Source: Patescibacteria group bacterium
Lineage (GTDB): Bacteria > Patescibacteriota > Microgenomatia > UBA1400 > 2-01-FULL-45-11
Direction of reading: 5' to 3'
Assembly: GCA_042569595.1 (NCBI GenBank)
Contig: JBHPHI010000004.1
Coordinates: forward strand, 1 to 41,675
DNA: 41,675 bases
In this document: piece after piece, positions 518 through 22,164 of the stretch
How the letters are laid out: every line of letters begins with the position of its first letter
How positions within the stretch are numbered: position 1 is the first letter of the stretch
The notes under the pieces: model-generated
What the model was told of the DNA's origin: nothing
Seen by the model: only the letters and a program-made list of their open reading frames with translations
Databases searched by the model: none
Made by a program: the position numbers and the translations under genes

Positions 518-1210
518 ATGGCGATAACCCTTTACAGAAGACAAAGACAAATTGTTGATTTCATATCTCAGTATATTCAAGCAAAGGGGTATTCGCCAAC
601 CTTAAAAGAAATAGCGGCTGCAATAGGGGTTTCAAGCTTGGCAACAGTTCACGAACACCTTCAGGCATTAGAAAAAAAAGGTGTAATAAAAAAATACGAA
701 GGAGCTGTTCGGGGAATTGAGCTTTTAGATAAGAAAATAGGTGGAATGATGAGTGCAGGTGTTAATATTCCCTTTCTTGGGTTTATTGCTGCTGGTAGAC
801 CAATAGAGCCTCATTCAGATCAAGACGCACAATTTATAGTCTCCCCCTCCATGGTTTCTTCAAAAAAACGATCATACGTTCTTCAAGTAAAAGGAGAGAG
901 CATGATAGAAGAAGGAATTTTAGATGGAGATTATGTAGTGATAGAAGAACAAGAGGAAGTAAGAAATGGAGACATAGTGGTGGCTTTGTTGGAAAATGGA
1001 CTAGCCACTTTAAAAAGATTCTTTAAAGAAGCAACCAGAGTAAGGCTAGAGCCGGCAAATTCAACCATGAAACCTATTTTTGCGACAAACGTTAGAGTTC
1101 AAGGAAGAGTTGTTGGTTTAATAAGGCGTTTTGAGGGTGATGGTTCCCGAAAATTGGGTGTTACAAACGATCTGAGAAGATACGTGAAAGACAACGAACT
1201 GCCTAATTAG
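518..1210 (+). CDS. lexA: SOS repressor LexA
   Basis: wHTH (GYSPTLKEIA...ATVHEHL), Ala-Gly cleavage site (IAAG), catalytic Ser (GESM) and Lys (TLKR). Confidence 0.97.
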   Translation: MAITLYRRQRQIVDFISQYIQAKGYSPTLKEIAAAIGVSSLATVHEHLQALEKKGVIKKYEGAVRGIELLDKKIGGMMSAGVNIPFLGFIAAGRPIEPHSDQDAQFIVSPSMVSSKKRSYVLQVKGESMIEEGILDGDYVVIEEQEEVRNGDIVVALLENGLATLKRFFKEATRVRLEPANSTMKPIFATNVRVQGRVVGLIRRFEGDGSRKLGVTNDLRRYVKDNELPN

Positions 1211-2486
1211 ATAAGTTTTTTAGAGCCTCTCCCACGACAAAAAAACTTCCAGTTATTAGACATTTTGACTTCTTTGTTTTTGGAATTAGTTTTAAGGCGT
1301 CTTCAACAGAATGAGAAATGGTATTTTTTACATTTTGCTTTTTGCACTCATTGGCAATTTTTTTAGGAGACATTGACCTTGGATGATTTGATTTTGTTGT
1401 AATTATTTGACTTGAAATAGGTTTAAGAAGAGAAATAATTTTCTTTACGTTTTTATCGCTTGATAAACCTAGAATTACTGTAACTTTATTTGTATATATT
1501 TGTCCGATTGTACTTGCAACATAATTAATTGATTCAGGGATATGAGCCGCATCTAGTATAAAGGTTGCTTCCCTTTTTCTAATTTTTTGAAACCTTCCGG
1601 GCCAATTTATATGAGAAATTGCATGTTTAATTGATTTTTTCGAAACACCCAATTGAAGTAAAACCGTTATTGCTGTTTGGATATTTACTAGCTGATGATC
1701 TCCAAGAAGAGAAGTGCTAACTTTGTCAAAAATATTTGCTATGCATATTTCCTGATGTAAAGAATCTTGTTTTATTTTTTCTATTTTGATTTTTTTAGAT
1801 GCATCTATAAAAATTGAATTATTTTCTTTGGCAACAACTTTAAACATTTTTTCTGCATCATTGTGAGATTGTTTTGAGATAACTATCGGAGTCCTTGGCT
1901 TAATAATCCCGGCCTTTTCTGTGGCAATTTCTTTTATGGTGCTCCCTAGAACAGAAGTGTGTTCTTTAAATATTGGAGTGATAGCAGAAATTTCTGGGCT
2001 GATAATGTTGGTAGCGTCTAGCCTTCCTCCTAACCCGACTTCAATAATTGCCCTATCTACCCCATGATTTTCAAACACTTTAAATGCGAGAATGGTCATA
2101 ATTTCAAAAGTTTGGATGTTTTCAACCATGCTGATATGGGGTAATAGGTAGTTTAAGGTATCAGTAAACTCATCTTTTGAAATACTTGCACCATTTATCC
2201 TGAATCTCTCTGTGAATTCAATAAGATGAGGTTGTGTGAACATTCCTGTTTTAAATCCTTCATGCCTAAGTCCAAGTTCAATTAAGGCGGAGGTTGATCC
2301 TTTTCCCTTTGTCCCTCCGACGTGAACGGACTTGTACTTTTTTTGAGGATTCCCGCAAAGATTTGCTAATTTCTTCACTTTATCTAAACTGAAATTTTCT
2401 TTAGACAGAGATTGACCCGGCTTTTTTTCTAAGTCTGTGAACTTGAGAAGGTAATTTGTTGCCTCTTTGTAGTTTTTTAACTTCAT
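1203..2486 (-). CDS. folC: Folylpolyglutamate synthase / dihydrofolate synthase
   Basis: HVGGTKGKGST, PHL..FTERF, EVGLGGRLDATN, EKAGI, WPGRFQ, DAAH, TGSFF. Confidence 0.93.
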   Translation of the reverse strand: MKLKNYKEATNYLLKFTDLEKKPGQSLSKENFSLDKVKKLANLCGNPQKKYKSVHVGGTKGKGSTSALIELGLRHEGFKTGMFTQPHLIEFTERFRINGASISKDEFTDTLNYLLPHISMVENIQTFEIMTILAFKVFENHGVDRAIIEVGLGGRLDATNIISPEISAITPIFKEHTSVLGSTIKEIATEKAGIIKPRTPIVISKQSHNDAEKMFKVVAKENNSIFIDASKKIKIEKIKQDSLHQEICIANIFDKVSTSLLGDHQLVNIQTAITVLLQLGVSKKSIKHAISHINWPGRFQKIRKREATFILDAAHIPESINYVASTIGQIYTNKVTVILGLSSDKNVKKIISLLKPISSQIITTKSNHPRSMSPKKIANECKKQNVKNTISHSVEDALKLIPKTKKSKCLITGSFFVVGEALKNLSN

Positions 2487-2510
2487 AACTGGGATTATAT
2501 ATTACGAAAT

Positions 2511-2535
2511 AAAAAGGGCCATTAAAGGCCCTTTT
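2511..2535 (-). terminator. Intrinsic terminator after the aldolase gene (possibly bidirectional)
   Basis: AAAAGGGCC-N6-GGCCCTTTT hairpin with U-tract, 20 bp after the stop at 2556. Confidence 0.8.
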
Positions 2536-2555
2536 GTAGTATTGTTTAAAATGTA

Positions 2556-3881
2556 TTAATCAGCTAAGCCTTTTACGTCCCCAAGTTTTGCTGATTTTGT
2601 GATAAAGTCATTTTTGGTTTTTGAAACCTCAACTAAATTCACATGTTTTTTTACAATATCTATTGAATCAACAACGTTTAATTCCTTGTAAAAGAACTCA
2701 AATCTGTTTGCTAGAGAGCTTCTTATCTTTTCTTTTTTTTCTTCTAATATATCCCAAGTGTCTTTTTTAAACTCCCCCCAAGCTTTTTTCCTGAGCTTGT
2801 AGTGAAATTGTTCAATGGTTTGACCTTCTTTTTTCTCGTCTTGTTTTGTTTGATCTAGCCACAAATACATTTTACTAATTAAATCGCTAGGAAATTCTTT
2901 ATGGTCCATTTGTATGTTTTGAAACCCTGTGGCGAGATGAACCTCTACAGCTTCTGATTTTGTGAATTGACTGAAGTACTCGTCAGGTAATGTAGAAGCT
3001 CCGTGCTGCACAGAACCACCAATTTGAAATTCCTCCCGGCAAACTTTCGAGACGTCTTTTAAAATAGAAAAGTCTATATCAACATCTGCAAGCGATCCGT
3101 CTGCAAGCACGACTCCACCATGGCTGCTTCCCGTGTTCACACTTATTTTACTCATACCCTTAACACTTCCCATTTCTTGGTTGAACCCCTTCAAATAAGC
3201 CCTCACATCCTCAACAGAGCTGTTTACCCCTCCAATATGGCCAACCTCGCCCCCTAAAGATGTTGTAATACCTTTTGGTTCGATTTCTCTAATAAATTTA
3301 GCTATTTCAACAGAATATTTGATGTTTCCGACCTGTTGTTCCTGTTCTTCCTTTTTGTCTAAATCGACAAGAGTAGACATATCAATATCTACATTGTAAA
3401 AACCTGCATTTAATGCCTCTTTTACTAAATCTGATATTGTTTTTATTTCGCCCTCTTTTGGAACTCCAGGTGAATCTGCTTTTGCCTGAAAATGATCACA
3501 CTGTAAAAACAAGGGCCCTACCCAACCCTCTCTGATGGCTGCCGCTCTGACTACGGTTGCATACTCCATTGGAGGTTGATCTGTGTATCCCATTTCAGAT
3601 CGTGCTAATTCAAAAATTAAAGCACCAACATTGTGTTTTACGGCAGCCTTAAATGCAGCTCTAGCTGTGTCGTAAGCCATTCCTCTTATGTTCATTGCCG
3701 GAACAGTAAAGTTGTGTGGTAGGTTGTTTGATCCTCTTGCTAAATAAAAGTCATTGATTGATGAAGAGATTATGCCTATTTCATTTGCTCGATTGTATAT
3801 TTGTTCTCTTGCAGAAGACTTTTCCTCTTCTAATCCAAAGACTGCTTGATATACAAGCTTGTCAATTTGTTTTGAGTTCAT
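2556..3881 (-). CDS. Class II fructose-bisphosphate aldolase family protein
   Basis: VPAMN, LQCDH, GGEVGHIGG, GSSHG, VQHGAST metal-binding motifs. Adjacent to glpX. Confidence 0.85.
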   Translation of the reverse strand: MNSKQIDKLVYQAVFGLEEEKSSAREQIYNRANEIGIISSSINDFYLARGSNNLPHNFTVPAMNIRGMAYDTARAAFKAAVKHNVGALIFELARSEMGYTDQPPMEYATVVRAAAIREGWVGPLFLQCDHFQAKADSPGVPKEGEIKTISDLVKEALNAGFYNVDIDMSTLVDLDKKEEQEQQVGNIKYSVEIAKFIREIEPKGITTSLGGEVGHIGGVNSSVEDVRAYLKGFNQEMGSVKGMSKISVNTGSSHGGVVLADGSLADVDIDFSILKDVSKVCREEFQIGGSVQHGASTLPDEYFSQFTKSEAVEVHLATGFQNIQMDHKEFPSDLISKMYLWLDQTKQDEKKEGQTIEQFHYKLRKKAWGEFKKDTWDILEEKKEKIRSSLANRFEFFYKELNVVDSIDIVKKHVNLVEVSKTKNDFITKSAKLGDVKGLAD

Positions 3882-3889
3882 TTTTCTCC

Positions 3890-4852
3890 TTAAAGTCTGT
3901 AATTTATTCTTTTTTTATCAAATACGTGAGTTGTGTCTATGAACCTAATCTTATCGCTTTGGTTGCTCATTACCAATGTGTGGGTTCTAGCACCTCCACC
4001 GAAAAATCTTACCCCTTTTAGTAAATCTCCGTTCGTGACTCCAGTTGCACAAAATACTATTTGCTTTCCACTTGCTAGTTGTTTGTGTGAGTATATTTTT
4101 TTAGGATCTCCACCCATTTTTTTGAGTCTATTTTCTTCCTCTTTGTTTTTTACCCAGAATCTTCCTTGCATTTCACCCTTTAGACATCTAATAGCAGCTG
4201 CTGTCATAACGCCTTCCGGCGCAGCCCCAATTCCCATAACAGCGTGCACTCCTGTACCTCTCATACAGGCAGCCACTCCTGGAAGTAAATCCCCGTCTGG
4301 AATGAGTTTTACTCGAGCGCCTGTTCTTCTAATGTCTGTAATTAGTTCTTCGTGTCTATCTCTGTCTAGAACCACAACCACCAGATCTTTAATATCCCTT
4401 TTTAAAGAGCTTGCTATGGTTTTAAGCGTTTTCTTTACAGGATCATCGATATGAACTTTACCAGCAGAATCTGGACCAACAATTAGCTTCTCCATATACA
4501 TGTCAGGGGCGTGGAATAGTCCATTTTTTTCTGAAGCTGATAAAACAGAAATTGCTCTAGGCCCAAACACAGCAGTTGCATTTGTGTTTTCTAGAGGATC
4601 AACAGCAATATCTATGGACTTTCCTTTTCCTGTGCCTAATTCTTCTCCAATATATAGCATTGGAGCTTCATCTCTCTCTCCCTCTCCTATAACAACCCTT
4701 CCCTTAAACTCTACTGAGTTGAGGTACTCTCTCATGGCTTTTACTGCAGCTTTATCAGCGCCAATTTTATTTCCAAAGCCCGCTTCATAAGCGGCTTGAA
4801 TTGCGCCTGCCTCCGTAGCGTGAGATAAAGCTAACGCTAATGAATGTTCCAT
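3890..4852 (-). CDS. glpX: Fructose-1,6-bisphosphatase class II
   Basis: ADKAAV.AMR, VVIGEGERDEAPMLYIGE, DIAVDPLE, DGD, ATGVT.GDLL.GV. Confidence 0.95.
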   Translation of the reverse strand: MEHSLALALSHATEAGAIQAAYEAGFGNKIGADKAAVKAMREYLNSVEFKGRVVIGEGERDEAPMLYIGEELGTGKGKSIDIAVDPLENTNATAVFGPRAISVLSASEKNGLFHAPDMYMEKLIVGPDSAGKVHIDDPVKKTLKTIASSLKRDIKDLVVVVLDRDRHEELITDIRRTGARVKLIPDGDLLPGVAACMRGTGVHAVMGIGAAPEGVMTAAAIRCLKGEMQGRFWVKNKEEENRLKKMGGDPKKIYSHKQLASGKQIVFCATGVTNGDLLKGVRFFGGGARTHTLVMSNQSDKIRFIDTTHVFDKKRINYRL

Positions 4853-4863
4853 AAGTCCTTTCG

Positions 4864-5676
4864 TTATTGATTTGTTTTTGCCCAGTTTGTTTGAGCTGTT
4901 TTGTAGTCCTTTTGGTTGGATATGTCTTGCCAGAATCCTTGAAAAATAAATGCTGTTAATTCTCCCTCTCCCGCAAGTGTTGGAAAAATGTCACTTTCAA
5001 GTTTTGATTTTTTCACTATCCTTTTTAGGATTTGAGATTTGAAGACATAAATTCCTGTGTTGATAATATCAATTCCTTTAGTTTCAGTTTTTTCGAAAAA
5101 ATCTGTAATTTGATTTCCTTCTATCAGAACTTTACCGAAAGATTTTTCACCCTTTCTCGGTTTTACAGCAATTGTTGCTAGAGTGTCTTCTTGTGAGTGA
5201 AATTGAATAAAAGTTTTTAAATTCATGTTGGTTAAAATATCTCCATGAATTATTAAAAAATTTTCACCTGTAATATATTTTTCTGCTTTTTTAACAGCTC
5301 CTCCGGTACCAGATGGTGATGTTTCTGAAATGAATCGTATTCGAATGTTTTCTTCTGATTTTTTGAGGTCTTTTTTTATTTCTTCTATATCTTTTCCTGC
5401 ACAAATGACGACCTGACTTATCCCATTACTAACAAGTTGTGAGATTGTGTGTCTCAAAAGAGATTGATTGCCTATGGTTTTTAGGGTTGGGTTGTTTTTG
5501 TGCTTATCTCCGCCCGTTAAAATTATGGCGGTTTCAAGTGGGGTTTTTAAACTTTTTCTAATAAGTGACTCTATTGCATGTGACCTGTTTCTTATTTCAG
5601 AGCCATCTATGGTCTTATCAACCTTATTTAATAAGTCTTTTGGCAGGGTGATTGTTAGTCTACTTTTTGTTCTCAT
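4864..5676 (-). CDS. Ribbon-helix-helix DNA-binding domain fused to a degenerate sugar-phosphate nucleotidyltransferase domain
   Basis: N-terminal RLTITLPKDLLNKVD...NRSHAIESLIR (CopG/NikR-type RHH). Then AIILTGG, GTGGA, HGDIL, INTGIYVF, WQDI. GxGTR and PK are missing. Confidence 0.85.
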   Translation of the reverse strand: MRTKSRLTITLPKDLLNKVDKTIDGSEIRNRSHAIESLIRKSLKTPLETAIILTGGDKHKNNPTLKTIGNQSLLRHTISQLVSNGISQVVICAGKDIEEIKKDLKKSEENIRIRFISETSPSGTGGAVKKAEKYITGENFLIIHGDILTNMNLKTFIQFHSQEDTLATIAVKPRKGEKSFGKVLIEGNQITDFFEKTETKGIDIINTGIYVFKSQILKRIVKKSKLESDIFPTLAGEGELTAFIFQGFWQDISNQKDYKTAQTNWAKTNQ

Positions 5677-6932
5677 GCTTTTAGAACCTCGATTCCGGGC
5701 AGTTTTTTACCTCCTAAAAATTCTAATGATGCTCCTCCAGAGGCAGAGACGTAGTCATACCTATTTTGGAGCTTAAACTTATTTATTGCCGCCATAGTAT
5801 CCCCACCACCCAATATGGTGGTCGCCTTACTTTTTGCAATTGCTGAAGCAACTGACTTTGTGCCTTCTTCAAATTGTTTCAATTCAAACATTCCCATCGG
5901 TCCATTCCAAAATATGGTTTCTGCCTCTAAGATTATCTCTTTAAATAGTTTTTGAGTTTTGGGTCCAATATCTAGATACATTACATTTCTGTCTTCTTTC
6001 ATGTTGCCATTTGTTAATTCGATTGTGTGAACAGATTTTGAATGTTTTGGCCCTTGGGCTGCGACTACGTCAATTGGATATACAATTTTTGGAATAGGGA
6101 TGTAGTTGTTTAGCAAAAGCTTTTCTTGCCTGGTAGATTTGAGCATGTTTTCTGCAAATTTCACGTAATCAACTTCGCGTTTTTTTTCATCAGCTACTAC
6201 GTCTTGGAGGTAGGATGAATATATCTTTACCCCTTCTGCTTTTAAGAAATTGTTTGCAACTCCGCCTCCCACTAAAATCACGTCCGCAATTTTGGCAAGG
6301 TTGTAGATTGCGTCAATTTTATCCGAAATTTTGGCGCCACCAACAATTGCAACTAAAGGCCTTTTTGGTTTGGTGGTTAATGACGACAACATTTCAACTT
6401 CTTTTTGTAGTGTGAACCCGGCATAGGATGGAAGGTGTTTGGCAACCCCCGAAACTGAAGCGTGCTCTCTGTGACTTAATGAAAACCCGTCATTTACGAA
6501 AATATCTGCATATGAAGCCAAAGATTTTGATAATTTTGAATCATTTTTTGTCTCACCGGGCTCAAATCTATTATTTTCTAACATGAAAATTTCACCTAGA
6601 TTACCATTTTTTATAGCTACTTCGACATCCTTTCCTATAACATTGTCAAGTTTTTTGATTGGTTTTTTAATCAATTTTTCGAGCTCTTTCGCAACAGGGT
6701 CAAGTCTTAAACCCTCAACAACCTTGCCATCTGGTCTTCCAAGATGAGACATTAAAATAGTTTTACAATTTTGTTCTATGAGGTACTCAATTGTTGTGAG
6801 GGTAATTTTAATTCTGGTATTATCGACAACTCTAAATTTCTCCCCTTTTTGCATCAACGGAACATTGTAGTCTACTTTTACTAAGGCGGTTTTGTTTTTT
6901 ATATTTGCATTTTTTAAAGATTTAAGTTTCAT
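5673..6932 (-). CDS. pgk: Phosphoglycerate kinase
   Basis: DYNVP, SHLGRP, LEN.RF, GGAKISDK, DIGP, WNGPMGMFE, GGGDT, GGASLEFL. Confidence 0.96.
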   Translation of the reverse strand: MKLKSLKNANIKNKTALVKVDYNVPLMQKGEKFRVVDNTRIKITLTTIEYLIEQNCKTILMSHLGRPDGKVVEGLRLDPVAKELEKLIKKPIKKLDNVIGKDVEVAIKNGNLGEIFMLENNRFEPGETKNDSKLSKSLASYADIFVNDGFSLSHREHASVSGVAKHLPSYAGFTLQKEVEMLSSLTTKPKRPLVAIVGGAKISDKIDAIYNLAKIADVILVGGGVANNFLKAEGVKIYSSYLQDVVADEKKREVDYVKFAENMLKSTRQEKLLLNNYIPIPKIVYPIDVVAAQGPKHSKSVHTIELTNGNMKEDRNVMYLDIGPKTQKLFKEIILEAETIFWNGPMGMFELKQFEEGTKSVASAIAKSKATTILGGGDTMAAINKFKLQNRYDYVSASGGASLEFLGGKKLPGIEVLKA

Positions 6933-6958
6933 TGATTATTCCCACAAATTTAATATCT

Positions 6959-6984
6959 TATGAAGAGTTCATACTTTTTCATAC
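6959..6984. promoter_or_regulatory. Candidate operator: TTCATAC tandem repeat plus an inverted third unit
   Basis: TTCATACTTTTTCATAC (6968-6984) is identical to 14881-14897. An inverted TATGAA unit lies at 6959-6964. Confidence 0.7.
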
Positions 6985-7009
6985 TATATATTTAGATAAA
7001 GTTAGTCAA
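6981..7009 (-). promoter_or_regulatory. Predicted sigma70 promoter of the pgk-RHH-glpX-aldolase operon
   Basis: Minus strand TTGACT (7009-7004), 17 bp, TAGTAT (6986-6981). Confidence 0.65.
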
Positions 7010-7010
7010 C

Positions 7011-8279
7011 TTACTGACTTTGTTTTGAAGATGTGACGGAAGCTTCTATTTGAAGAAGCCTATTGTATTGAATAACCCTTTCACCACGCGTTGGTGCTCC
7101 GAGCTTTACGTATTCTGCTCCAGTTCCTACTGCCAGATCTGAAATGAAGGTATCATTTGTAGCCCCAACCCTACTTGAAACCACACAGTTTAATCCTGAT
7201 GACTTTATTAAACTTATGTATTCAATTATCTCAGAGACTGTTCCTATTTGATTTGGTTTAATTGACACGGCAGTGCAAGCTTTTTGCTGTATTGCAGTAT
7301 TGGTTAATTCTTTGTTACCTGAAGTTAACTTGTCGGCTATTATTAAGGTATCTTTTCCGACTTCAAATGTTATTTCTCCCCAGCCTTTAACATCTGCTGC
7401 AATCAATGGATCTTCTAGAACAAAAAGGTGATATTTTGAGTTCAATTCTTTGTAGAATTCGATAATGTCTTTTTTACTTATTTTTTTTGACCTATCACTT
7501 ATGTTGTATGCATTGTTTTTATATATATCATCAGCTGCTGCATCTATTCCTAAAAACACATCCTGACCAGTGTAGTAAGATGTGGTTTTAATAGCTTCGT
7601 AAATAATTTCTAAAGCATCAATATTTGTATAAAGGTTTGGTGTAAACCCCCCCTGAGCTCCAACGCTGTGTATGGCCTTGTTGGCAATTAGTGTTTTTTC
7701 TAAGGAATGAAAAATTTCAGAGCTGATTCTCAACGAATCTGAAAAGGAGTGTCTTGATGAAGGAATTATTTGAAATTCTTGGAAGTCTAAACCTCCAATG
7801 CCAAATACGCCTCCGCTAATTATTGCCACTATTGGAGAAGGAAGTGTGTATGAAGTTGTTAGTTGGTATTTTTTCCCAAAATACTCGTAAAGTGGCATAT
7901 GAAATAAAGAAGCTCCAGCTTTTGCGATAGCTTGAGATACTGGCAAAATCGCATTGGCTCCAAGTTTGCTTTTGTTTGCTGTGCCATCGATTTCAATCAT
8001 TGTTTTGTCAACCTGGCTTTGCCTACTAGGATCTAAGCCTTTTAATCTAGGAGCAATGATCGTGTTTATATTACTTACGGCTTTTTCTACACTTTTTCCG
8101 TGATAGTTTGAAGGATCGTTATCTCTTACTTCCAAAGGCTCATTTTTTGACTTTGTGGTGTTGCTTGAAACTGAGCTGACACCGAAGGCTCCGTTATCTA
8201 ACCAAACAGTTGCCTCAACCGTTGGCCAACCCGTTGAGTCTAGTATGCTCCTTGCTGATATGTGATAAATTTTTGCCAT
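7011..8279 (-). CDS. eno: Enolase-family protein with degenerate active site
   Basis: Full-length enolase motifs (ILDS.G.PTVE, KSKLGANAIL, QEF, LEDP, IKPNQIG, YNRLL.IE). GDEGG has become GAQGG and SHRSGET has become SSRVGAT. Confidence 0.88.
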   Translation of the reverse strand: MAKIYHISARSILDSTGWPTVEATVWLDNGAFGVSSVSSNTTKSKNEPLEVRDNDPSNYHGKSVEKAVSNINTIIAPRLKGLDPSRQSQVDKTMIEIDGTANKSKLGANAILPVSQAIAKAGASLFHMPLYEYFGKKYQLTTSYTLPSPIVAIISGGVFGIGGLDFQEFQIIPSSRHSFSDSLRISSEIFHSLEKTLIANKAIHSVGAQGGFTPNLYTNIDALEIIYEAIKTTSYYTGQDVFLGIDAAADDIYKNNAYNISDRSKKISKKDIIEFYKELNSKYHLFVLEDPLIAADVKGWGEITFEVGKDTLIIADKLTSGNKELTNTAIQQKACTAVSIKPNQIGTVSEIIEYISLIKSSGLNCVVSSRVGATNDTFISDLAVGTGAEYVKLGAPTRGERVIQYNRLLQIEASVTSSKQSQ

Positions 8280-8288
8280 AATCTAATG

Positions 8289-10478
8289 CTAGACTAATTT
8301 TTTAATGCCTACCAGTTTTTTTTCAGCTTCAAGTGTGTAGTGCCTAAGCTGATCTATAAATGAGGGACTGCTTGTGATTCCCCAAGCGCCGTATTTTATT
8401 GAGCTTTCTATTGTATCTGGATGAATACTTAAATCTTCACCTGCAATAATAGTTTTTGTTTTGTGCTTGCTGGCCTTTTGTATGACTCTTTTTATTAATT
8501 CCTGAACAGAATCATCTCTTTCGTTGTATTGATTATCTAGTTCCGGTAAATTTCTATCTACTCCTAGAGTCAACATTGTTAAATCATTTACTCCAATTAC
8601 AAAACCATCTATTCCTGCTTCAATAAATTTTTCCGTACATAATGCAGCAGAGGGTGTTTCTATCATGGACCAAATCTGAAGGTCTGAAGATCTTTTAATC
8701 TCTAGATCAGCTAGAATTTTTTTGAAAAATATTAGCTCGTGGATAGTCCTAACAAAGGGAATAATAAGACGAATATTGTTGTTTTTTGACACATTAATTG
8801 CCTTGAAGACAGCACGAGACTCCAATTTGATAATTTCCTGATTATTTATGTGTTTTAAAGCTCCTCTATATCCAAAGCTTGAGTATTTTGTATTTTGATC
8901 GAATATGTAATCTGAAAATCGATAAAACAAAGGCTTGTTTTTGAGTTTGTTTGATAACTTGACTAAAGTGTTGGTTATGTTTTCTGAGTTGCTTTTTGAA
9001 TCTTTATTTTGATTGATTACAAACTCCCCTCGAACAAAACACACTCCATCTACATTGTTTGCATTGAAATTACCCAATCCGTCTTCAAATAAGCTTGTAA
9101 ATATTTTAGTTGCAGTTTTCTGAGGTGATTTTGATATTTTAACTGGTTTGACGTGAGTAGTTTTTGATGGTGTAGATCCATGATATAAAACTGATGACGA
9201 AGCATTCAATGTTACAACTGAACCATCTTTTATTTTCGGCAGTGCTTCTACTGATATAGAGGGAATTGCTAGCTCTTTTATATATATAGATTCTTTCTGG
9301 TGAGAGGAGGCGTTTTCCAATATACACCCAGAAATTTTAATTTTTGGTAGATCATATATTAAGTTTGAATATTTGATTCCTACAACGTCCCCATTTTTTA
9401 TTTTTTTGATATCTTCATTTTTAGAAATTTTTATATACCTTCCTGTTGTGAGTCCGTTGGAGATTTTTTCACCTGAAATAATTGTCTTCATGTTGGAGAA
9501 TATTGACGGCTTACTGCTTGGTTTTATAGGAACTATATTTTCGTTTTCATTTATATTTTGTGAGTCTATTATGTAAAAATTTCCATTTTCTTCTGCCCAC
9601 TCAATTTTCTGGGGAAAAAAGAGCTTTGCTTGAATTTTTTTAGATATTTTTGCTAACTTTATGATATTTTCATCTGATAATTTTTGAGAGTTTTGTTTTT
9701 TTGAATTCACATTTTTTTCTTCTATTCCTGAAAGCTCCCTTTTTAGTTGAGTCCTTTGATCCGTTACTTGCTTGCTAATTATTTCAAGTGAGTCTCTATT
9801 TATGTGATATTGGTCGGGGTAATAATCTTTGATGTATTTGTCTTTAATTCCCCATACTGAGTGAATTGTTAATTGATTTTTAGTTAATAGCCCCGGTGTT
9901 TGAGTGTAAGCAACCCCCGAAGTATTTGCCCCAATCATTTGCTCAACTATTACAGAAATCTTTAATTCTTTAACGTTTATGTTTTTTTGATGTATTTTGC
10001 TAATTAGTTTGTGATTGAATATAGAAGCCCAAACCTTACGAACAGCTTCCTGCAGGTTTGTTTCTCCAACCACGTTCAAGATTGGCTCTTGGTGTCCAAT
10101 TGAGTCTTTGTTGATAGAAAAATCGCCTCTAACTGCAACATGATTGTCTGATTTCATAGAGTGGTATGCATTAATAAGTGTCAAAGCTATTTTTTTGGGA
10201 AACTCTGAAGATTTTATTAGTAAAGAAATTCTTTTTGAGGCGATGTCTAGGTCTGATGGATTGAAAATATCTATGTTTTTGATCTGGTGTTGGATTTTGT
10301 CAATTAAGTAGTTTTTTTCAACAAACTCAGAAAATACTTTTGGAGTAACCACAAATCCTTTTGGGACTCTAAATTTAGCTTGAGATAATGTAGACAGCAC
10401 CACACCTTTTCGGCCTAAATGCTTTTTGTTTTCTTCTGAAATATCTTTAAACCACAACAAATATTTCTGCGTGTTCAT
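8289..10478 (-). CDS. PEP synthase / pyruvate,water dikinase-like protein, degenerate
   Basis: Three-domain PpsA layout (VPKGFVVT, VRKVWASIF, IEWA; central KELAIP; IPFVRT, MIETP, IGVNDLT). Catalytic motifs are altered. Confidence 0.85.
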   Translation of the reverse strand: MNTQKYLLWFKDISEENKKHLGRKGVVLSTLSQAKFRVPKGFVVTPKVFSEFVEKNYLIDKIQHQIKNIDIFNPSDLDIASKRISLLIKSSEFPKKIALTLINAYHSMKSDNHVAVRGDFSINKDSIGHQEPILNVVGETNLQEAVRKVWASIFNHKLISKIHQKNINVKELKISVIVEQMIGANTSGVAYTQTPGLLTKNQLTIHSVWGIKDKYIKDYYPDQYHINRDSLEIISKQVTDQRTQLKRELSGIEEKNVNSKKQNSQKLSDENIIKLAKISKKIQAKLFFPQKIEWAEENGNFYIIDSQNINENENIVPIKPSSKPSIFSNMKTIISGEKISNGLTTGRYIKISKNEDIKKIKNGDVVGIKYSNLIYDLPKIKISGCILENASSHQKESIYIKELAIPSISVEALPKIKDGSVVTLNASSSVLYHGSTPSKTTHVKPVKISKSPQKTATKIFTSLFEDGLGNFNANNVDGVCFVRGEFVINQNKDSKSNSENITNTLVKLSNKLKNKPLFYRFSDYIFDQNTKYSSFGYRGALKHINNQEIIKLESRAVFKAINVSKNNNIRLIIPFVRTIHELIFFKKILADLEIKRSSDLQIWSMIETPSAALCTEKFIEAGIDGFVIGVNDLTMLTLGVDRNLPELDNQYNERDDSVQELIKRVIQKASKHKTKTIIAGEDLSIHPDTIESSIKYGAWGITSSPSFIDQLRHYTLEAEKKLVGIKKLV

Positions 10479-10545
10479 GGGCAGGCTCCTTATGAGGTAA
10501 GAATAACAAAAAAATCCACTTCTTACTACTAGATAAGAATATATT

Positions 10546-11478
10546 TTAGATATTTGTTCCCGGAACTATCACCTCAAATGTTTGCTTTTTTCCGTACGCT
10601 TTTGGACCATAATCTAAACAAAAACTTTCAATGTTTTCTTTAAAGTAGGGGTTTTTAACGGATTGAATTTTCCCAACTATGTAATATGCAAGAGAGATTA
10701 TCAAGCCATAATCAGCTGATCTTGGCAGAGATATATCCCACCTGTGATCTTTGTGACCAAAATGAACATTTTTGTCTCCGATAGTGATGACTAGCTCCTT
10801 TTTCCATGGATGAACAAACCCTGCGTGCCTAGCGTGTCCAAAAGTGAAGGCCCTGAGCGCCATATGGGGTCCAAAGAGCTCATTTCTTTTGATTTCCACC
10901 ATTGGACCAACCTGGCCATGTTTGTCAGGAAAGATAAAAGCATAACTCTCATATTCTCCGAATTTTTTTGGAAACTTTAAATTTTTTGAAAAATCTAATA
11001 TTTCTTTTGCAGATTCTTTTGTTTTTCCCAGAATCATGCCCATGTAAGTTGAGTAATTGTAGGTGTATGGTTCTGAAATTTTTTGGTATACCAGTGTTTG
11101 GTCAGCGATTTCTGATGCCGAAGAGTCTTGTGTGCAAGTTAATAAGAGAGTGTTTAGTCCCATTTCTTTTGCTGCTTCGACTTCCCAGACAGAGTCTTTT
11201 TCTCCTGATGCAGAGATAATTACTGCTTGGTCAATTAGCCCCTGAGAGACAACAGCTCGATAAGCTTCCAGATTTTTTTTGAAGTTGCTTTCGTCAGAAA
11301 AAATAGCTGCCTGATTTGCAAAAAGTATTTTTCCTGTGTTGAGAGCATTTCCACTACCAGTAACAAAAATTATTTTCGAATCATCTATGTTTAATTCTGG
11401 ATAGTTAGAATTTGATATAAACTCTAAAGCTTCAACGACTGTTTCATTTAAGTTTGGAATTTTCATTTCTTCCTCCAA
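10546..11478 (-). CDS. SIS-domain (sugar isomerase fold) protein
   Basis: VTGSGNA, IISASGEK, LLLTC phosphosugar-binding pattern. Sugar-operon context. Confidence 0.65.
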   Translation of the reverse strand: MEEEMKIPNLNETVVEALEFISNSNYPELNIDDSKIIFVTGSGNALNTGKILFANQAAIFSDESNFKKNLEAYRAVVSQGLIDQAVIISASGEKDSVWEVEAAKEMGLNTLLLTCTQDSSASEIADQTLVYQKISEPYTYNYSTYMGMILGKTKESAKEILDFSKNLKFPKKFGEYESYAFIFPDKHGQVGPMVEIKRNELFGPHMALRAFTFGHARHAGFVHPWKKELVITIGDKNVHFGHKDHRWDISLPRSADYGLIISLAYYIVGKIQSVKNPYFKENIESFCLDYGPKAYGKKQTFEVIVPGTNI

Positions 11479-11483
11479 TTGTT

Positions 11484-12653
11484 TTATAAGTGTGTTTTTA
11501 ATATAACAGTATCTTCATCAGGAATAATTTTGTACTTTCCTGTTGAGGCTGGAATAAATGCAGAGAAACCTTTTGTAAGAGTTAGTTGATTTTGATCTGA
11601 ATTGATTTGTATTTTTCCTTCTTTTACGAATAAGTGATGAAACGATTTGCTTGTGGTTGTGTGATTATTCGACATTTCTTCACTCAGCACCATTTTATCT
11701 AAAATGTAGTTTTTATTTATGAACAATCGTTCGACTAAGAAACTATTAGTTTTTTCAATTGTTATTGGAGACACTATGTGGGTTTTAAAATCGTTTGCTT
11801 CTTCTGATTTGTCTATGTGCTTAAAATAGTCATCTAATTGAATTGCTCTGATAGACCCATCGTCTTTAATTTTGCCTTTATCGAAACTCCTGATTGTACT
11901 TACAGGATCATATACATTTTTTTGCACCTCATAAACTATGTTTCCTTGTGGGTATTTTCCAGACTCTTCCCAAGAGTGGTGAACTCCACATTCAGACAAG
12001 TCAATTGCTTCCTCTTTTTTTGTTTCGATTAAATTTACATATTTCTCTGGATTATGTTTGCTAATAAAATCTTTCAAATCATTTCTTGCTTCATCAACTT
12101 TTTTTAAGCCTGACTTTATTTGACTACTCAGCTCTTTTGCGAAATTGTTTATCTTGAAGCATGTTTCTTGATAGTCATTCCAGTTAATATTTTTTTTGAC
12201 TCCTAAAGTAATAAGTCCTGGCTCAAGGTAGTACCATGATTCTGGTTTTGGTTGCCAATTTTTACTTTTCTTCTTTGCGTGAAGTTGATATGAGTTTCCT
12301 TTTGCCTGGGTAAATTTAATTAGAACTCCCATTTTTTCCCCATGTATTTTGATAGCTCTTTCTCCAAGAGTCTTAGCAGGGTCTTCATCTATCAGCTCCT
12401 GAATGTTTATTGGAAAACCATCACCAAAAGTTTTTGATATTCTTGGATTGTTGGGCACGCCGAACTCTATTGTTGGAGTATTTTCTGTAGAAGTTTTTTT
12501 CGAAAAGTTTGAGTGCTCATATAGTTCGTAAGACTGTCCTATTTTTTTATTTTGCAATTTTTCGTTTTTGAGTTGCTTGTATTTTGTAATATATTCACCC
12601 CCCCAAGTGGGTTGCTCTATAAGATTTGGAATGATAATGTATGGCTTTATCAT
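11484..12653 (-). CDS. Type I mannose-6-phosphate isomerase-like cupin protein
   Basis: PTWGG, IGQSYEL, LIKF....NSYQLH, KPESWY, HH..EVQ metal-ligand pattern; C-terminal cupin (KGFSAFIPA). Confidence 0.75.
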   Translation of the reverse strand: MIKPYIIIPNLIEQPTWGGEYITKYKQLKNEKLQNKKIGQSYELYEHSNFSKKTSTENTPTIEFGVPNNPRISKTFGDGFPINIQELIDEDPAKTLGERAIKIHGEKMGVLIKFTQAKGNSYQLHAKKKSKNWQPKPESWYYLEPGLITLGVKKNINWNDYQETCFKINNFAKELSSQIKSGLKKVDEARNDLKDFISKHNPEKYVNLIETKKEEAIDLSECGVHHSWEESGKYPQGNIVYEVQKNVYDPVSTIRSFDKGKIKDDGSIRAIQLDDYFKHIDKSEEANDFKTHIVSPITIEKTNSFLVERLFINKNYILDKMVLSEEMSNNHTTTSKSFHHLFVKEGKIQINSDQNQLTLTKGFSAFIPASTGKYKIIPDEDTVILKTHL

Positions 12654-13448
12654 CTATTTCCTAATTACTTTGTTTAACTGACTTACTAGCTCTTTGTGAA
12701 TTTTCCCGTTTGTTCCAATAGCAATACTTTTGTAGTTGTTGAAAGAGATTTCTTGATTGTTTAAATCGCTAACTTTTCCACCAGCTTCTTTAAGGATTAA
12801 AATTCCTGGGGCAATATCCCACCATTTGGTAGGAGTGAATATGGAAAAATGACCTTCATAACCACCTTTTGCCACCCAACAGTAGCTCATATTGTGGTTG
12901 GCATGACCTCTCACCCTATACAACAACTCAAAAATAGGAGCTAACCAAACAACTTGCTTTGCCTCTTTTGGCAAATATGTAAACAGCATCGAATGATCCA
13001 ACCTTTGCTCAGAGGAAACTGATATGCGCTTTCCGTTCAGTGTTGCGCCATTTTTTAGTGAAGCACTATAGAGCTCATCAAGTTCTGGGTCGTAAATTGC
13101 AGACACTATTGGAACTCCATTTTTTTGCAATACTACGGCGGAACAATATAACGGAATTTCTCTTATGTATTCTTTTGTTCCATCGAGTGGATCTATAACC
13201 CAGGTAAAGTCTGATCCCTTTCTTATTTCTCCAACTTCTTCGGAAAGTATGTTGTGCTTTGGAAAGTTTTTTTCAATTATTTGTATTACTTTTTTTTCAA
13301 TCTTTATGTCTACGTCAGTTACAATATCCTCCTTGTCTTTGTAGGCCTTAATTGAAAACTTACCCTTAGATTCAACAAGTATCTTTCCTGCTTCTTTTAC
13401 GACTTCCTCTGCTGTGGATCTAGCTTTTTTTAGATTATTCAAGGGCAT
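12654..13448 (-). CDS. Inositol monophosphatase family protein (SuhB-like)
   Basis: VTDVD, ILSEE, WVIDPLDGT, WDIAPG. Confidence 0.9.
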   Translation of the reverse strand: MPLNNLKKARSTAEEVVKEAGKILVESKGKFSIKAYKDKEDIVTDVDIKIEKKVIQIIEKNFPKHNILSEEVGEIRKGSDFTWVIDPLDGTKEYIREIPLYCSAVVLQKNGVPIVSAIYDPELDELYSASLKNGATLNGKRISVSSEQRLDHSMLFTYLPKEAKQVVWLAPIFELLYRVRGHANHNMSYCWVAKGGYEGHFSIFTPTKWWDIAPGILILKEAGGKVSDLNNQEISFNNYKSIAIGTNGKIHKELVSQLNKVIRK

Positions 13449-14859
13449 GCGTATTAACTGCTATTGGATCATCAAATTTTATCTGAGGGTATTTTTTCAG
13501 AATATCTCGAACTTGGGTTTTGACCAAATCATAGTCTTGCTTATTTTTTGCCTCAAATTTTATTCCAACATAAGGCCCATTCTGAGAGGCCCTAACAATA
13601 GCCATTCTGTCTGGAAGGTCCATTCTTACGCCATCGATATTGATGAATTCTGCTTTAGGCCAGGTTTTTTTGAAGTCATCAGTTATTTCATTGGCAATCA
13701 ACTGGAACTTTATGTCATCGGCAAGACCAAGTTTTATTTCAGGACTTGAGTAGTATTGAGAAAGCTTTGAAACGGCCTCTGATAAGGACTGCTCAGTCCT
13801 TTCTAAGTACTGCAATAGTCTTATAGATGCATATGCACCATCATCGTGACCATAAAAGTTGTCAAAGAAAAATATATGACCTGAAAGTTCTCCACCAAAT
13901 GGTGCTTTTTCTTGTTTGATTCGAGCTTTAATGAAAGAGTGTCCAGTCATTTCCATGACTGGTTTTCCGCCAGCTTTTTCTATTGCTTCTGTAACTTGTC
14001 TTGAGCAAAAAGTGTTGTACACAATTGGAGCTCCAGGCATGTAGTCTAAAATGTCTTGAGCAAAAAGGGCGACGGCAGTATCCATGTACAATACCTCTCC
14101 TTTTTCATTTACTACTGCCATTCTGTCGCCGTCAGTGTCATATGCAAAGCCAATGTCAGCGTTTGCTTTTTTTACTCCTTCTGCCAACCTTTCTAGAACT
14201 TCTACTTCTGTGGGATCTGGAACTCCTAAAGGAAAGCTTCCATCAAGCTCTGTGTTTTGTTCGATTACTTCGCAACCAGCGCCTCTTAATATTTCTGGGT
14301 AAAACATTCCAGATGTGGTGTTGCAGGCGTCGATGACAACCTTCCATTTTTTCTTTAAACTAAAGTGTTTTAGCACGTCTTCTTTGTAGTCTGGGAATAT
14401 GTCGATTTCGGTATTTTTGCCAGAACCTTTTGAAAACTTTTTTGAATCTACTAGGTCACGAAATGCGATGATTTCATCTGTAACCATAGTTTCTGAATAC
14501 CCAGTGCCTAGCTTCAAGCCGTTGTATTCTTTTGGGTTGTGAGAGGCTGTGAGCATGGCTGTGCCTTTGGTTTTGAAGTGGTATGAAGAAAAGTAAACAA
14601 TCTGGCTTAGTGAAAGACCAATATTATAGGTATCAACACCACCGTCGTTTAGCCCTTTTATAAAAGCATTTGAATATAATTCTCCTGTTAATCTATTGTC
14701 TCGTCCAACAACACATTCTTTTATTCTTCTTTCAGAAAGATATGTTGCATATCCCCTACCTAGAGTGTAGTAAACGTCTTCTGAAAGATCTTTGTCTGCC
14801 ACCCCTCTTATGTCATACCCTCTAAATATGTGCGGATTTATTCCTGAGACTATTTTCAT
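13435..14859 (-). CDS. Phosphomannomutase/phosphoglucomutase
   Basis: IFRGYDIRG, TASHNP (phospho-Ser), DTDGDR, GELSGH, DGVR, RASQ. Confidence 0.95.
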   Translation of the reverse strand: MKIVSGINPHIFRGYDIRGVADKDLSEDVYYTLGRGYATYLSERRIKECVVGRDNRLTGELYSNAFIKGLNDGGVDTYNIGLSLSQIVYFSSYHFKTKGTAMLTASHNPKEYNGLKLGTGYSETMVTDEIIAFRDLVDSKKFSKGSGKNTEIDIFPDYKEDVLKHFSLKKKWKVVIDACNTTSGMFYPEILRGAGCEVIEQNTELDGSFPLGVPDPTEVEVLERLAEGVKKANADIGFAYDTDGDRMAVVNEKGEVLYMDTAVALFAQDILDYMPGAPIVYNTFCSRQVTEAIEKAGGKPVMEMTGHSFIKARIKQEKAPFGGELSGHIFFFDNFYGHDDGAYASIRLLQYLERTEQSLSEAVSKLSQYYSSPEIKLGLADDIKFQLIANEITDDFKKTWPKAEFINIDGVRMDLPDRMAIVRASQNGPYVGIKFEAKNKQDYDLVKTQVRDILKKYPQIKFDDPIAVNTHALE

Positions 14860-14880
14860 AAAAAATACTCCTTATATTTC

Positions 14881-14897
14881 TTCATACTTTTTCATAC
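14881..14897. promoter_or_regulatory. Candidate operator, second copy of TTCATACTTTTTCATAC
   Basis: 17/17 identical to 6968-6984. Lies 22-38 bp upstream of the PMM/PGM start. Confidence 0.7.
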
Positions 14898-14902
14898 ATT
14901 AC

Positions 14903-14931
14903 ATATTACATCCTAGCCAGAAGTAGTTCAA
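14903..14931 (-). promoter_or_regulatory. Predicted sigma70 promoter of the PMM-IMPase-PMI-SIS operon
   Basis: Minus strand TTGAAC (14931-14926), 17 bp, TAATAT (14908-14903). Confidence 0.55.
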
Positions 14932-15580
14932 GTTCGCCTCTTAAGCCAAGGATTGTTTTTCCAGTTTTAATTTTCTCATCAATTTCTAATAAATTTTGAT
15001 GAATTTTGACTACTTTATTTTGACCTATTTTTTTCAACTGATGTTTTAGCTTGTTTTTTTGCCATGGAGGAATTTTTGCTGAACTATTTTCAACTTGCAA
15101 AAGAAGCCTGACTTGCCTTGCGATCATGAAAAAAATTGATTCTGGAGAATCTATGTTGATGCATTCCTGATAGAAACTGATTACTCTTTTTTTGTCTTCC
15201 CCAAGGGTATCTAAAAATTTAAAGATAACACTTGAAGTTTTAAACTCTTGATCCGTTGAGTTTTTGAATGGTTTAAGTTGGGTTTTTGAGAGTTTTTTTG
15301 ACTCCCATAGTAAAATCTCATCCTTTTTTGCTGTAGATAAGTATTTGACAATTTCATCTTTTTGCTTAGATTTTGGCCTGGCAATGAGGCCTTCGATGAT
15401 CGTTAAGCGATCCGAACCAAATAAACTTTGCGACTCCAAAGATTGTTTTATTTCTTCGACTCTAACTTTTTTGCCATTTACCCTGGTGATGTCTTTTATT
15501 CCCTTAGCTTTAAATTCATCTATCTTAGAGTTTAATAAATTTCTTGATCCGACAATATTTTCGCCATGAATAATTAGCAT
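14906..15580 (-). CDS. holA: DNA polymerase III delta subunit-like (short form)
   Basis: IIHGEN, SLFG..RL.IIE, IFKFLD, D..IKTG.......LELL pattern. Only 224 aa. Confidence 0.7.
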   Translation of the reverse strand: MLIIHGENIVGSRNLLNSKIDEFKAKGIKDITRVNGKKVRVEEIKQSLESQSLFGSDRLTIIEGLIARPKSKQKDEIVKYLSTAKKDEILLWESKKLSKTQLKPFKNSTDQEFKTSSVIFKFLDTLGEDKKRVISFYQECINIDSPESIFFMIARQVRLLLQVENSSAKIPPWQKNKLKHQLKKIGQNKVVKIHQNLLEIDEKIKTGKTILGLRGELELLLARM

Positions 15581-15996
15581 TGTTTTGAAAAAAGCTTATT
15601 AATAAATCCTTTGCCAGTTTTCTTTTTGTATTCTTTGAATAGTTTGTTTACAAGAGTGTGATGCACCTGATGCCTTCTTCCTGCTCCTCTATGAGGAACT
15701 AAGGCCCCTGAAAAGCTTTTTGGGATGTGCATGAGCTCGTGAATAAGAACTTTTAGTTGCTCGTCTTCGTTTAGGTGATCGAAATGATGAGAAATAACCT
15801 CTATAACATAGTGGGCCTTTATATTTAGAGCTAATTGCCAAATTCTTGGCATGCTCCAAATTCTAGCTCTGGCATTAGCTTTGCTTCCCTCTGATCTGAA
15901 GGCGATAATCCTGTTTCTATCAATATGTGGAAATTCAATATTATCTAATAAATGATTGAGTTTTTTTTGAATGTCTGGTGCTTTTTGGAAATTCAT
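15574..15996 (-). CDS. Putative zinc metallopeptidase
   Basis: HELMH (HExxH) after YVIEV...FD.L, followed by HIP..FSG.L..H. Confidence 0.7.
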   Translation of the reverse strand: MNFQKAPDIQKKLNHLLDNIEFPHIDRNRIIAFRSEGSKANARARIWSMPRIWQLALNIKAHYVIEVISHHFDHLNEDEQLKVLIHELMHIPKSFSGALVPHRGAGRRHQVHHTLVNKLFKEYKKKTGKGFINKLFSKQC

Positions 15997-19435: not shown

Positions 19436-19870
19436 CTAGTGAGATTGAGATTTGATTTGTCCTCGTTTTCTTGCAACCTTTAATTCCATGATTGCTCTTC
19501 GAAGATCTGCCTCTGCGAGAAGTAGTTCTCTTTGAGACTGCTTATCTTGCAACAATTCTTCAGCTCTTCTTTTTGCAGCTTCTGCTTTGGCAACGTTGAT
19601 TTTATCTGAGTGGATGGCACTGTCGGCCATAACTGTAATAGTTTTGCCTCCAGAAACATCCATAAAACCCCCTGAAATTACGTAGCTTATTTCTTTGCCA
19701 GCTTTGACATACTTTATTTCACCTGCGTCAAGCCTTGTAAACATAGAAATATGATGTGGTAGAACAGTTACTTCTCCCATAACGGTAGGGGCACTTACAG
19801 AGTCCACGATTTCAGTAAGAAGATGCTTCTCTTGCGTGACTACCTGTAGTGTTATTTTTGCTGCTGCCAT
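19436..19870 (-). CDS. atpC: ATP synthase F1 epsilon
   Basis: GEVTVLPHH, ISGGFMDV, AEAAKRRAE; operon position. Confidence 0.95.
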   Translation of the reverse strand: MAAAKITLQVVTQEKHLLTEIVDSVSAPTVMGEVTVLPHHISMFTRLDAGEIKYVKAGKEISYVISGGFMDVSGGKTITVMADSAIHSDKINVAKAEAAKRRAEELLQDKQSQRELLLAEADLRRAIMELKVARKRGQIKSQSH

Positions 19871-19876
19871 AGGCCC

Positions 19877-22164
<2,288 letters not shown>

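Follow-up and report, generated by a model that had tools for sequence, protein, structure and literature searches.

A stretch of 41,675 nucleotides from a Patescibacteria group bacterium (assembly GCA_042569595.1, contig JBHPHI010000004.1), referred to here as the window, carries two minus-strand transcription units of sugar-phosphate genes, and the same 17-nucleotide sequence, TTCATACTTTTTCATAC, lies in the short gap at the head of each. Read on the gene strand, this 17-mer is GTATGA-AAAA-GTATGA-A, in which a unit of 6-7 nucleotides is repeated at a 10-bp period. One of the genes encodes a 270-residue protein in which a ribbon-helix-helix (RHH) head is fused to a sugar nucleotidyltransferase (NTase)-like domain, and the relation between the GTATGA boxes and this fusion protein is the subject of the present analysis. 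Labels beginning with G, C and L denote genomes, contigs and loci, respectively; G000 is the source genome, which measures 0.91 Mb in 47 contigs and is 88% complete.

Proposed operator sites ahead of two sugar-phosphate units

The genes of the two units, as delimited by open reading frames (ORFs) and Pfam matches, are the following:

1203..6932, minus strand: unit A, behind the pgk operator
5673-6932, minus strand: pgk, first gene of unit A (Pfam PGK)
4864..5676, minus strand: candidate regulator of 270 amino acids, unit A (RHH_1 and NTP_transferase)
3890-4852, minus strand: glpX fructose-bisphosphatase, unit A
2556-3881, minus strand: class II aldolase-like gene, unit A
1203-2486, minus strand: Mur-ligase-like gene, a possible member of unit A
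7011..14859, minus strand: unit B, behind the PMM operator
13435-14859, minus strand: PGM/PMM, first gene of unit B
12654-13448, minus strand: IMPase/FBPase-like gene of the inositol-monophosphatase family, unit B
11484-12653, minus strand: mannose-6-phosphate isomerase-like gene, unit B
10546-11478, minus strand: weakly SIS-like gene with an HxlB-like match, unit B
8289-10478, minus strand: phosphoenolpyruvate synthase-like gene, unit B
7011-8279, minus strand: enolase, unit B

The Pfam matches (PGK, RHH_1 with NTP_transferase, FBPase_glpX and F_bP_aldolase in unit A; PGM_PMM, Inositol_P and the MPI cupin in unit B) agree with the gene names given in a preliminary description of this DNA, apart from the gene it had called SIS, which has only the weak HxlB-like match (E 7.6e-6, far below the cut-off). 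No terminator was called on the gene strand between enolase and pgk, so read-through from unit B into unit A is possible. The order pgk-fusion-glpX of unit A is kept in G013 (L017) and G042 (L018). A search for public sequencing runs containing 5600-15000 listed none.

Exact copies of the 17-mer are present at 6968-6984 and 14881-14897, with the repeat at its 10-bp period directly legible in both, and a scan of the window at up to 3 mismatches gave no match beyond these two. Both lie in short gaps between minus-strand genes at operon heads, as had been described: the pgk site in the 78 nt from the enolase stop (7011) to the pgk start (6932), the PMM site in the 46 nt from the stop of a holA-like ORF (14906) to the PMM start (14859). 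At pgk, the two direct units at their 10-bp period are followed, 5 nt beyond the second, by the third, inverted unit of the preliminary description, which matches at 5 of 6 positions and reads TTATGA on the plus strand (6958-6963). L088 and L089 have this same arrangement, direct units at N4 and then an inverted one at N5, ahead of the fusion gene. The sites and their predicted promoters are located as follows:

6958..6984, minus strand: pgk-promoter operator, GTATGA (6984-6979), AAAA, GTATGA (6974-6969), ACTCT, TCATAA (6963-6958)
6981..7009, minus strand: predicted sigma-70-type pgk promoter, TTGACT (7009-7004), 17 nt, TAGTAT (6986-6981), called by a promoter scan at 9/12
14881..14897, minus strand: PMM-promoter operator, GTATGA (14897-14892), AAAA, GTATGA (14887-14882), A
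14903..14931, minus strand: weak predicted PMM promoter, TTGAAC (14931-14926), 17 nt, TAATAT (14908-14903), from direct reading

The predicted -10 of pgk shares 4 nt with the first GTATGA unit. The PMM operator begins 5 nt past its predicted -10 and would cover about +1 to +17, and the predicted -35 of this promoter falls inside the end of the holA-like ORF.

The recurrence of the 17-mer is by itself not significant, since the window also contains two other pairs of exact repeats 17-18 nt long, and at least two matches at up to 3 mismatches arose in 6 of 100 shuffles. Both facts would suit the view that an AT-rich 17-mer recurs by chance and without function in two AT-rich gaps, but the probability of this view becomes negligible once the search is widened to the whole genome. 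The core GTATGA-N4-GTATGA, for which the preliminary description had suggested such a scan, is not randomly scattered: it is present in four exact copies against an expectation of 0.067 (349 hexamers) and a mean of 0.1 copies in 30 first-order Markov simulations, an over-representation of about 40-60-fold, and all four copies are intergenic. Members of other families and phyla also keep the core ahead of their orthologues of PMM, pgk and the fusion gene, and at a guanine-plus-cytosine (GC) content of 0.62-0.72 it can be the sole copy. The significance of the motif rests on this enrichment and conservation and not on the recurrence of the 17-mer. Two of the four exact cores are the pgk and PMM sites (6968-6984 and 14881-14897); the others, and the most relevant imperfect copies, are these:

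C5, gene at 19535-20275: exact core ahead of a cytidylate-kinase-like gene
C5, 23135-23150: exact core in a gap without an evident target, with a third direct unit present
C12: one-mismatch copy GTGTGAAAAAGTATGAA, immediately upstream of the -35 of a GalU-like gene
C28: three-unit array GTATGT-N5-GTATGA-N5-TCATAC, ahead of a CsoR/RcnR-family gene

Four more one-mismatch matches are located inside ORFs, one of them 97 nt upstream of a ManC-type gene (C13).

The boxes and the fusion gene in other genomes

A first sample comprised 61 genomes, namely the source genome and 60 relatives, one from the same family and the others from the same order. Six of the 61 contain the exact core, and eight a full-length fusion with a match from residue 1-4. 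Outside the source genome, exact cores stand ahead of the following genes:

PMM: G031, G055 and G042
pgk: G042
RHH-NTase gene: G042
WecG glycosyltransferase: G013
ManC-like gene: G055
MBL hydrolase: G033, probably by chance

Upstream of the fusion operon, G028, G013, G048 and G023 show variant arrays. In the first of these (L016), a GAPDH-like gene (Gp_dh_C) precedes the fusion gene instead of pgk, and the operator consists of GTATGA-N5-TCATAC and another GTATGA, abutting TTGACA.

The sample was enlarged to 251 genomes of the same order, in which the fusion was called at E <=1e-30. The core is present in 58 of these genomes (102 sites) and the fusion in 57; 46 genomes have both, 11 the fusion only, 12 the core only and 182 neither. 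The association corresponds to an odds ratio of 63 and a Fisher p of 1.6e-28, a value that overstates the case, as the genomes are related and not independent. The co-occurrence proposed in the preliminary description is thus borne out, with the core in 46 of 57 fusion genomes and in 12 of 194 genomes without the fusion (11 of 193 if G223 is set aside). Counted by sites, the 57 fusion genomes hold 89 and the 194 others 13, the latter being the chance rate. The spacer between the boxes is mostly (A/C/T)AAA in fusion genomes, and in 11 of the 12 core-only genomes it looks unrelated. The core-only genome G213 has two sites with an AAAA spacer; it belongs to the genus g40, and the fusion was found in all eight other sampled genomes of this genus. 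In 20 of the 57 genomes with the fusion, a comparison of coordinates places an exact site ahead of the fusion gene at a distance of at most about 70 nt.

These counts bear on a second alternative, in which the operator is real but bound by another transcription factor, with the fusion gene as a mere target. Several sites do lie far from the fusion gene, and a cytidylate-kinase-like protein with an N-terminal extension, itself a recurrent target, might autoregulate. Against this, the motif tracks the fusion gene across the order, its lone genomic copy is found on the fusion promoter in all five large genomes of other phyla described below, the half-site coincides with that of NikR, the nearest relative of the head among solved structures, and there is no second RHH_1 match in the genome. 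A different binding factor must be considered very improbable.

The genes behind sites away from the fusion gene were surveyed at 40 loci, all from fusion-bearing genomes, with about 20 further such sites left out:

PGM/PMM: 20 of 40 loci
PGK: 3 of 40
WecG: 3 of 40
GalU-like NTase: 2 of 40
glutamate dehydrogenase: 2 of 40
cytidylate-kinase-like protein, the same target as in the source genome: 1 of 40
HAD hydrolase: 1 of 40
uridine kinase: 1 of 40
SurE/NUDIX, a divergent pair: 1 of 40
weak hydrolase-like protein: 1 of 40
no clear adjoining gene: 5 of 40

The "small carbon regulon" of the preliminary description is roughly right, but both the protein family and the operator extend far beyond the source genome.

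The same loci help to decide whether the boxes act as DNA or in the mRNA leader, either as a translational operator or as an RNA structure. At many loci only 1-10 nt separate the second box from the start codon, which leaves little room for a ribosome-binding site, and the PMM boxes of the window fall in the predicted leader. An element of the leader is nonetheless barely credible, since the direct repeat, which is on the gene strand in the window, is on the strand opposite the gene at 19 of the 20 PMM sites of relatives and thereby favours a DNA site over an RNA element. Some sites moreover lie upstream of the -35 (as in C12), inverted units occur, RHH domains bind DNA, and 6500-15500 gave no Rfam match at E <=1.

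Beyond the order, 443 relatives of the fusion protein were found at E <=1e-5 in a protein collection. The best 120 of these are about 260-315 amino acids long and cover 93-100% of the query, and those among them that are named carry the name "NDP-sugar pyrophosphorylase" or similar. A scan of one genome per species yielded 344 relatives, from which 80 loci were kept. By the titles of the records, from which all phyla were taken and some of which are probably mislabelled, these loci belong to Patescibacteria groups, Zixibacteria, Chloroflexota, Acidobacteriota/Thermoanaerobaculia and Planctomycetota, with one "Iainarchaeum". Of the 80 loci, 31 have an exact half-site pair in the 120 nt ahead of the fusion start (30 of 79 if arrays in the first 150 nt are counted), and in seven more it stands at the head of a preceding gene for about 380-445 amino acids, taken as pgk by synteny alone. 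In the 2 kb downstream of the fusion gene an array was found in only 3 of 69 loci, in two of these ahead of glpX. In ten loci (GC 0.52-0.72, nine of them at least 0.62) the two hexamers of the pair are the only GTATGA in 3-13 kb. The consensus is aaaGTATGA(c/a/t)AAAGTATGA(c/t)A; the underlying position weight matrix was built from exact cores and is circular for the core, so that it was used for flanks and spacer only.

In each of five genomes of 4.5-5.9 Mb from outside the Patescibacteria, the fusion gene looks monocistronic and its promoter bears the single exact core of the genome; with 1 mismatch allowed, this site is still the sole match in three of the five. For two large genomes of mid GC, scans at 1 mismatch gave 16 matches against 16 and 18 against 8 for a reversed-pattern control, which is uninformative on further targets. 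On direct reading, the boxes follow a TTGACA-17-TAnnnT promoter by 6-10 nt or lie over its -10 in six loci of other phyla, L043, L054, L073, L097, L066 and L074. In L040, L042, L048 and L078 the second box ends 1-4 nt before the fusion start codon, without room for a Shine-Dalgarno sequence, and the regulator mRNAs of these loci may be leaderless or nearly so. Literature searches, in which coverage of subscription journals was thin, found no description of this fusion family.

A NikR-like head on a nucleotidyltransferase-like domain

Residues 1-45 of the fusion protein (5676-5542) form the RHH head, with 22.1 bits to Pfam RHH_1 (PF01402) against a cut-off of 20.5. In a six-frame search of the genome, RHH_1 reached 24.8 bits and the fusion was the sole match. 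Among solved structures, residues 1-58 match only NikR of Pyrococcus horikoshii (E 0.032) and of Escherichia coli (E 0.064). The residues R6, T8 and T10 align with R3, T5 and T7 of E. coli NikR, the R-x-T-x-T strand, which presumably contact bases in the 2HZV complex. The head is the best-conserved part of the family, and K4, R6, L7, T8, I9 and T10 are invariant in 82 members. In the predicted monomer model the two helices span residues 13-21 and 31-43; a prediction of the full-length homodimer gave a score of 0.33 (mark 0.42), which weighs neither way.

RHH repressors such as omega of pSM19035, MetJ, Arc and CopG bind arrays of short subsites with one dimer per subsite. On such tandem subsites both direct and inverted orientations are used, and neighbouring dimers are about one turn apart. 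These repressors are small one-domain proteins (MetJ uses S-adenosylmethionine), whereas the fusion carries a 225-residue enzyme-like domain after a linker of about 5 residues.

The comparison with NikR extends to the DNA site. The E. coli NikR operator is GTATGA-N16-TCATAC (PMC7055735) and the enterobacterial consensus GTATGAT-N13/14-ATCATAC (PMC545781). NikR (E. coli 1Q5V/2HZV, P. horikoshii 2BJ1) has in common with the fusion the N-terminal RHH head, the R-x-T-x-T strand and the GTATGA half-site, and both proteins have a C-terminal effector domain and an operator on the promoter. By contrast, the C-terminal domain of NikR is ACT-like and binds nickel, while that of the fusion is nucleotidyltransferase-like; the NikR boxes are an inverted pair 16 bp apart, those of the fusion are direct repeats with a 10-bp period, to which an inverted unit at N5 may be added; and NikR targets nickel uptake, whereas the putative targets of the fusion are sugar-phosphate genes. 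NikR_C (PF08753) has no match in the fusion protein or in the genome. An identification of the protein as NikR was rejected for lack of NikR_C and because the boxes are direct at one turn and not an inverted pair two turns apart. The N16 spacing was likewise discarded, with no exact GTATGA-N16-TCATAC in the genome and four at 1 mismatch.

Residues 46-270 are sugar-1-phosphate nucleotidyltransferase-like, with 111.7 bits to NTP_transferase (PF00483). Their match covers positions 23-242 of the profile; in the genome's five other NTases, one of which is of ManC type (C13), it begins at positions 1-3. Chains of GMPPB and GMPPA from 7D72 are among the sequence matches in the PDB, the best structure match being GMPPB (7D72_K, E 4.9e-24). 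The canonical NTases of this and related genomes bear the signature G-x-G-T-R-x-x-P...P-K, which serves the binding of nucleoside triphosphate (NTP) and catalysis. In an alignment of the loop in six fusions and three canonical NTases (the row of a fourth NTase began past the loop), all six fusions have a deletion of 7-8 residues at the GxGTR loop and no PK lysine, while D146, G123 and D251 are retained. Across 82 members D146, K172, E227 and D251 are conserved and the region of the GxGTR loop is variable. None of the 32 NCBIfam models that matched (equivalogs such as ManC/Rv, RmlA, GalU and GlmU) reaches its cut-off.

DNA-binding heads on metabolic enzyme domains are known from PutA, which also has an RHH head, and from BirA, in both of which transcription is tied to a pathway metabolite. 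The enzymes of PutA and BirA are active, whereas the catalytic loop of the fusion is deleted. A bifunctional enzyme-repressor of this type, with the same protein-operator pair and a C-terminal domain that still works as an enzyme, would agree with the well-predicted NTase fold (predicted local distance difference test, pLDDT, about 90 across the domain), with the four conserved residues and with the fact that the best family matches are mannose-1-phosphate guanylyltransferases. It appears unlikely, though less so than the alternatives above, in view of the loop and lysine missing from all six fusions, the variability of the loop region in the family, the 102.6 bits for the best equivalog (man1P_GTase) against its cut-off of 440, and the canonical NTases, including the ManC type, with which the genome is already provided. 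The domain is most likely a sensor derived from an enzyme, as a paralogue of mannose-1-phosphate guanylyltransferase. PMC11228364 describes GMPPA as a paralogue of GDP-mannose pyrophosphorylase that is non-catalytic, binds GDP-mannose and has a regulatory role in the pathway. It belongs to the same enzyme family as the fusion domain and lacks activity, as is proposed for that domain, but it acts in eukaryotes through protein-protein allostery on GMPPB and has no DNA-binding domain, whereas the fusion has its RHH head.

Proposed regulation and further features

Directly observed are the GTATGA motif and where it is placed, the joint occurrence of motif and gene, the resemblance to NikR and the disappearance of catalytic motifs. 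The overall best explanation, in which we have good though not full confidence, is that the GTATGA boxes are the operator of a regulator built from a NikR-type head and a dead NTase with sensing of the nucleoside diphosphate (NDP)-sugar type. The protein encoded at 4864-5676 very probably binds the boxes, as judged from sequence comparison: the motif follows the presence of the fusion, sites are found on fusion promoters, a NikR half-site goes together with a NikR-like head, and the fusion is the only RHH_1 match. The suggestion of the preliminary description that the operator is most simply bound by the RHH fusion is supported by these points. One RHH dimer would read one GTATGA box through the strand R6-x-T8-x-T10, and boxes one turn (10 bp) apart would place neighbouring dimers on the same face of the DNA, in some cases along with a third, inverted box 5 nt further along. 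Two or three dimers on the -10/start region would then block RNA polymerase and so cause repression. That the bound protein represses is likely, if somewhat less assured than the binding itself; the boxes over the predicted -10/start of pgk, of PMM and, elsewhere, of the regulator's own promoter would suggest repression together with negative autoregulation. Under this control would come the unit of pgk, regulator, glpX and fba, the unit headed by PMM and a number of nucleotide-sugar genes; the regulator would also repress itself.

The NTase-like domain has lost its NTP-binding catalytic loop and kept much of the sugar-nucleotide pocket. It may sense, for instance, GDP-mannose, another NDP-sugar or a sugar-1-phosphate, and such a ligand, as co-repressor or inducer, would switch DNA binding. 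GDP-mannose or a close relative is a guess from homology and the regulon, and a tentative one that may well be wrong. The expression of gluconeogenic and hexose-phosphate genes would thereby be coupled to the NDP-sugar pool, most likely as a feedback on the supply of hexose phosphates and NDP-sugars.

Several observations weigh against this explanation of the boxes and the fusion. The match to NikR is weak by E-value, the domain being short, and the RHH head is modelled with a pLDDT of only 53-64. Of the two promoters in the preliminary description, that of pgk was recovered by the scan, while the TTGAAC-17-TAATAT ahead of PMM is present with 8 of 12 matches only and was not called. The boxes at the GalU-like gene (C12) and at WecG (G013) lie upstream of the -35, unlike in simple occlusion. 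Within the order, the 11 fusion genomes that lack the exact core include some with variants (G028, G048, G023); in the wider set, 47 of 80 loci have no exact array within 120 nt upstream and 37 of 70 none within 2 kb upstream. Gottesmanbacteria-type proteins (MDRERLTITL) are notable among the loci without a nearby exact array, and five of five such genomes have 2-6 exact cores elsewhere, ahead of phosphoribosyl pyrophosphate synthetase, epimerase/dehydratase, hexokinase and other genes. The large genomes, finally, show a single site only.

Patescibacteria have very few regulators and their metabolic control is almost undescribed; the present analysis supplies a candidate regulator, its DNA site and a list of targets. 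As the half-site does not change from phylum to phylum, any genome with the fusion gene allows its regulon to be read off directly. If the explanation holds, the protein represents a new build of metabolite-sensing repressor, in which a NikR-type head with its DNA specificity intact is joined to a dead enzyme as sensor, and the annotation of hundreds of "sugar nucleotidyltransferase" genes is to be corrected. A wider claim, to which we give somewhat less than even chances, is that this is a widespread family of transcription factors (344 species-level genomes and at least five bacterial phyla by titles) combining a NikR-type head with a dead paralogue as NDP-sugar sensor and annotated hitherto as "NDP-sugar pyrophosphorylase" only, and that it would be a main regulator of central carbon flow in Patescibacteria. 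On this wider claim, a full pool of sugar donors for the envelope would lead to a shutdown of gluconeogenesis, hexose-phosphate interconversion and nucleotide-sugar synthesis, with pgk, gapdh, glpX, fba, PMM, PMI, hexokinase, GalU, ManC and WecG as putative targets.

The cytidylate-kinase-like protein (Cytidylate_kin2), which has an N-terminal extension of about 40-50 residues, is a recurrent member of the regulon, with boxes preceding its gene in G000 (C5:19535-20314) and in G191 (L131). At C5:23124-23150 (L001/L014), three direct units, GTATGActaaGTATGAcaaatGTATCA, lie just past a convergent ORF of 204 amino acids without a Pfam match and about 165 nt from an ORF of 70 amino acids, also without a Pfam match; a strong hairpin lies in between, and no target gene is evident. 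At G000:C28:7186-7260 (L197), outside the window, a gene for a 78-residue CsoR/RcnR-family repressor (Pfam Trns_repr_metal) has TACT-G8-AGTA between its predicted -35 and -10. This sequence resembles the RcnR operator, TACT-G6-N-AGTA (PMC7055735), and the NikR-type array of C28 is directly upstream of it, in a genome without a NikR_C match.

Elsewhere in the window, genes for a LexA repressor (518-1210) and a Y-family (impB/mucB) polymerase (16099-17307) stand on the plus strand among minus-strand genes, and a phage-type metallopeptidase ORF (15574-15996) adjoins a holA-like ORF. An inverted repeat with perfectly matching 51-nt arms (1-51 and 168-218) opens the contig and overlaps a ResIII/DEAD helicase-like ORF (21-413); it is possibly an assembly artefact of the contig end.

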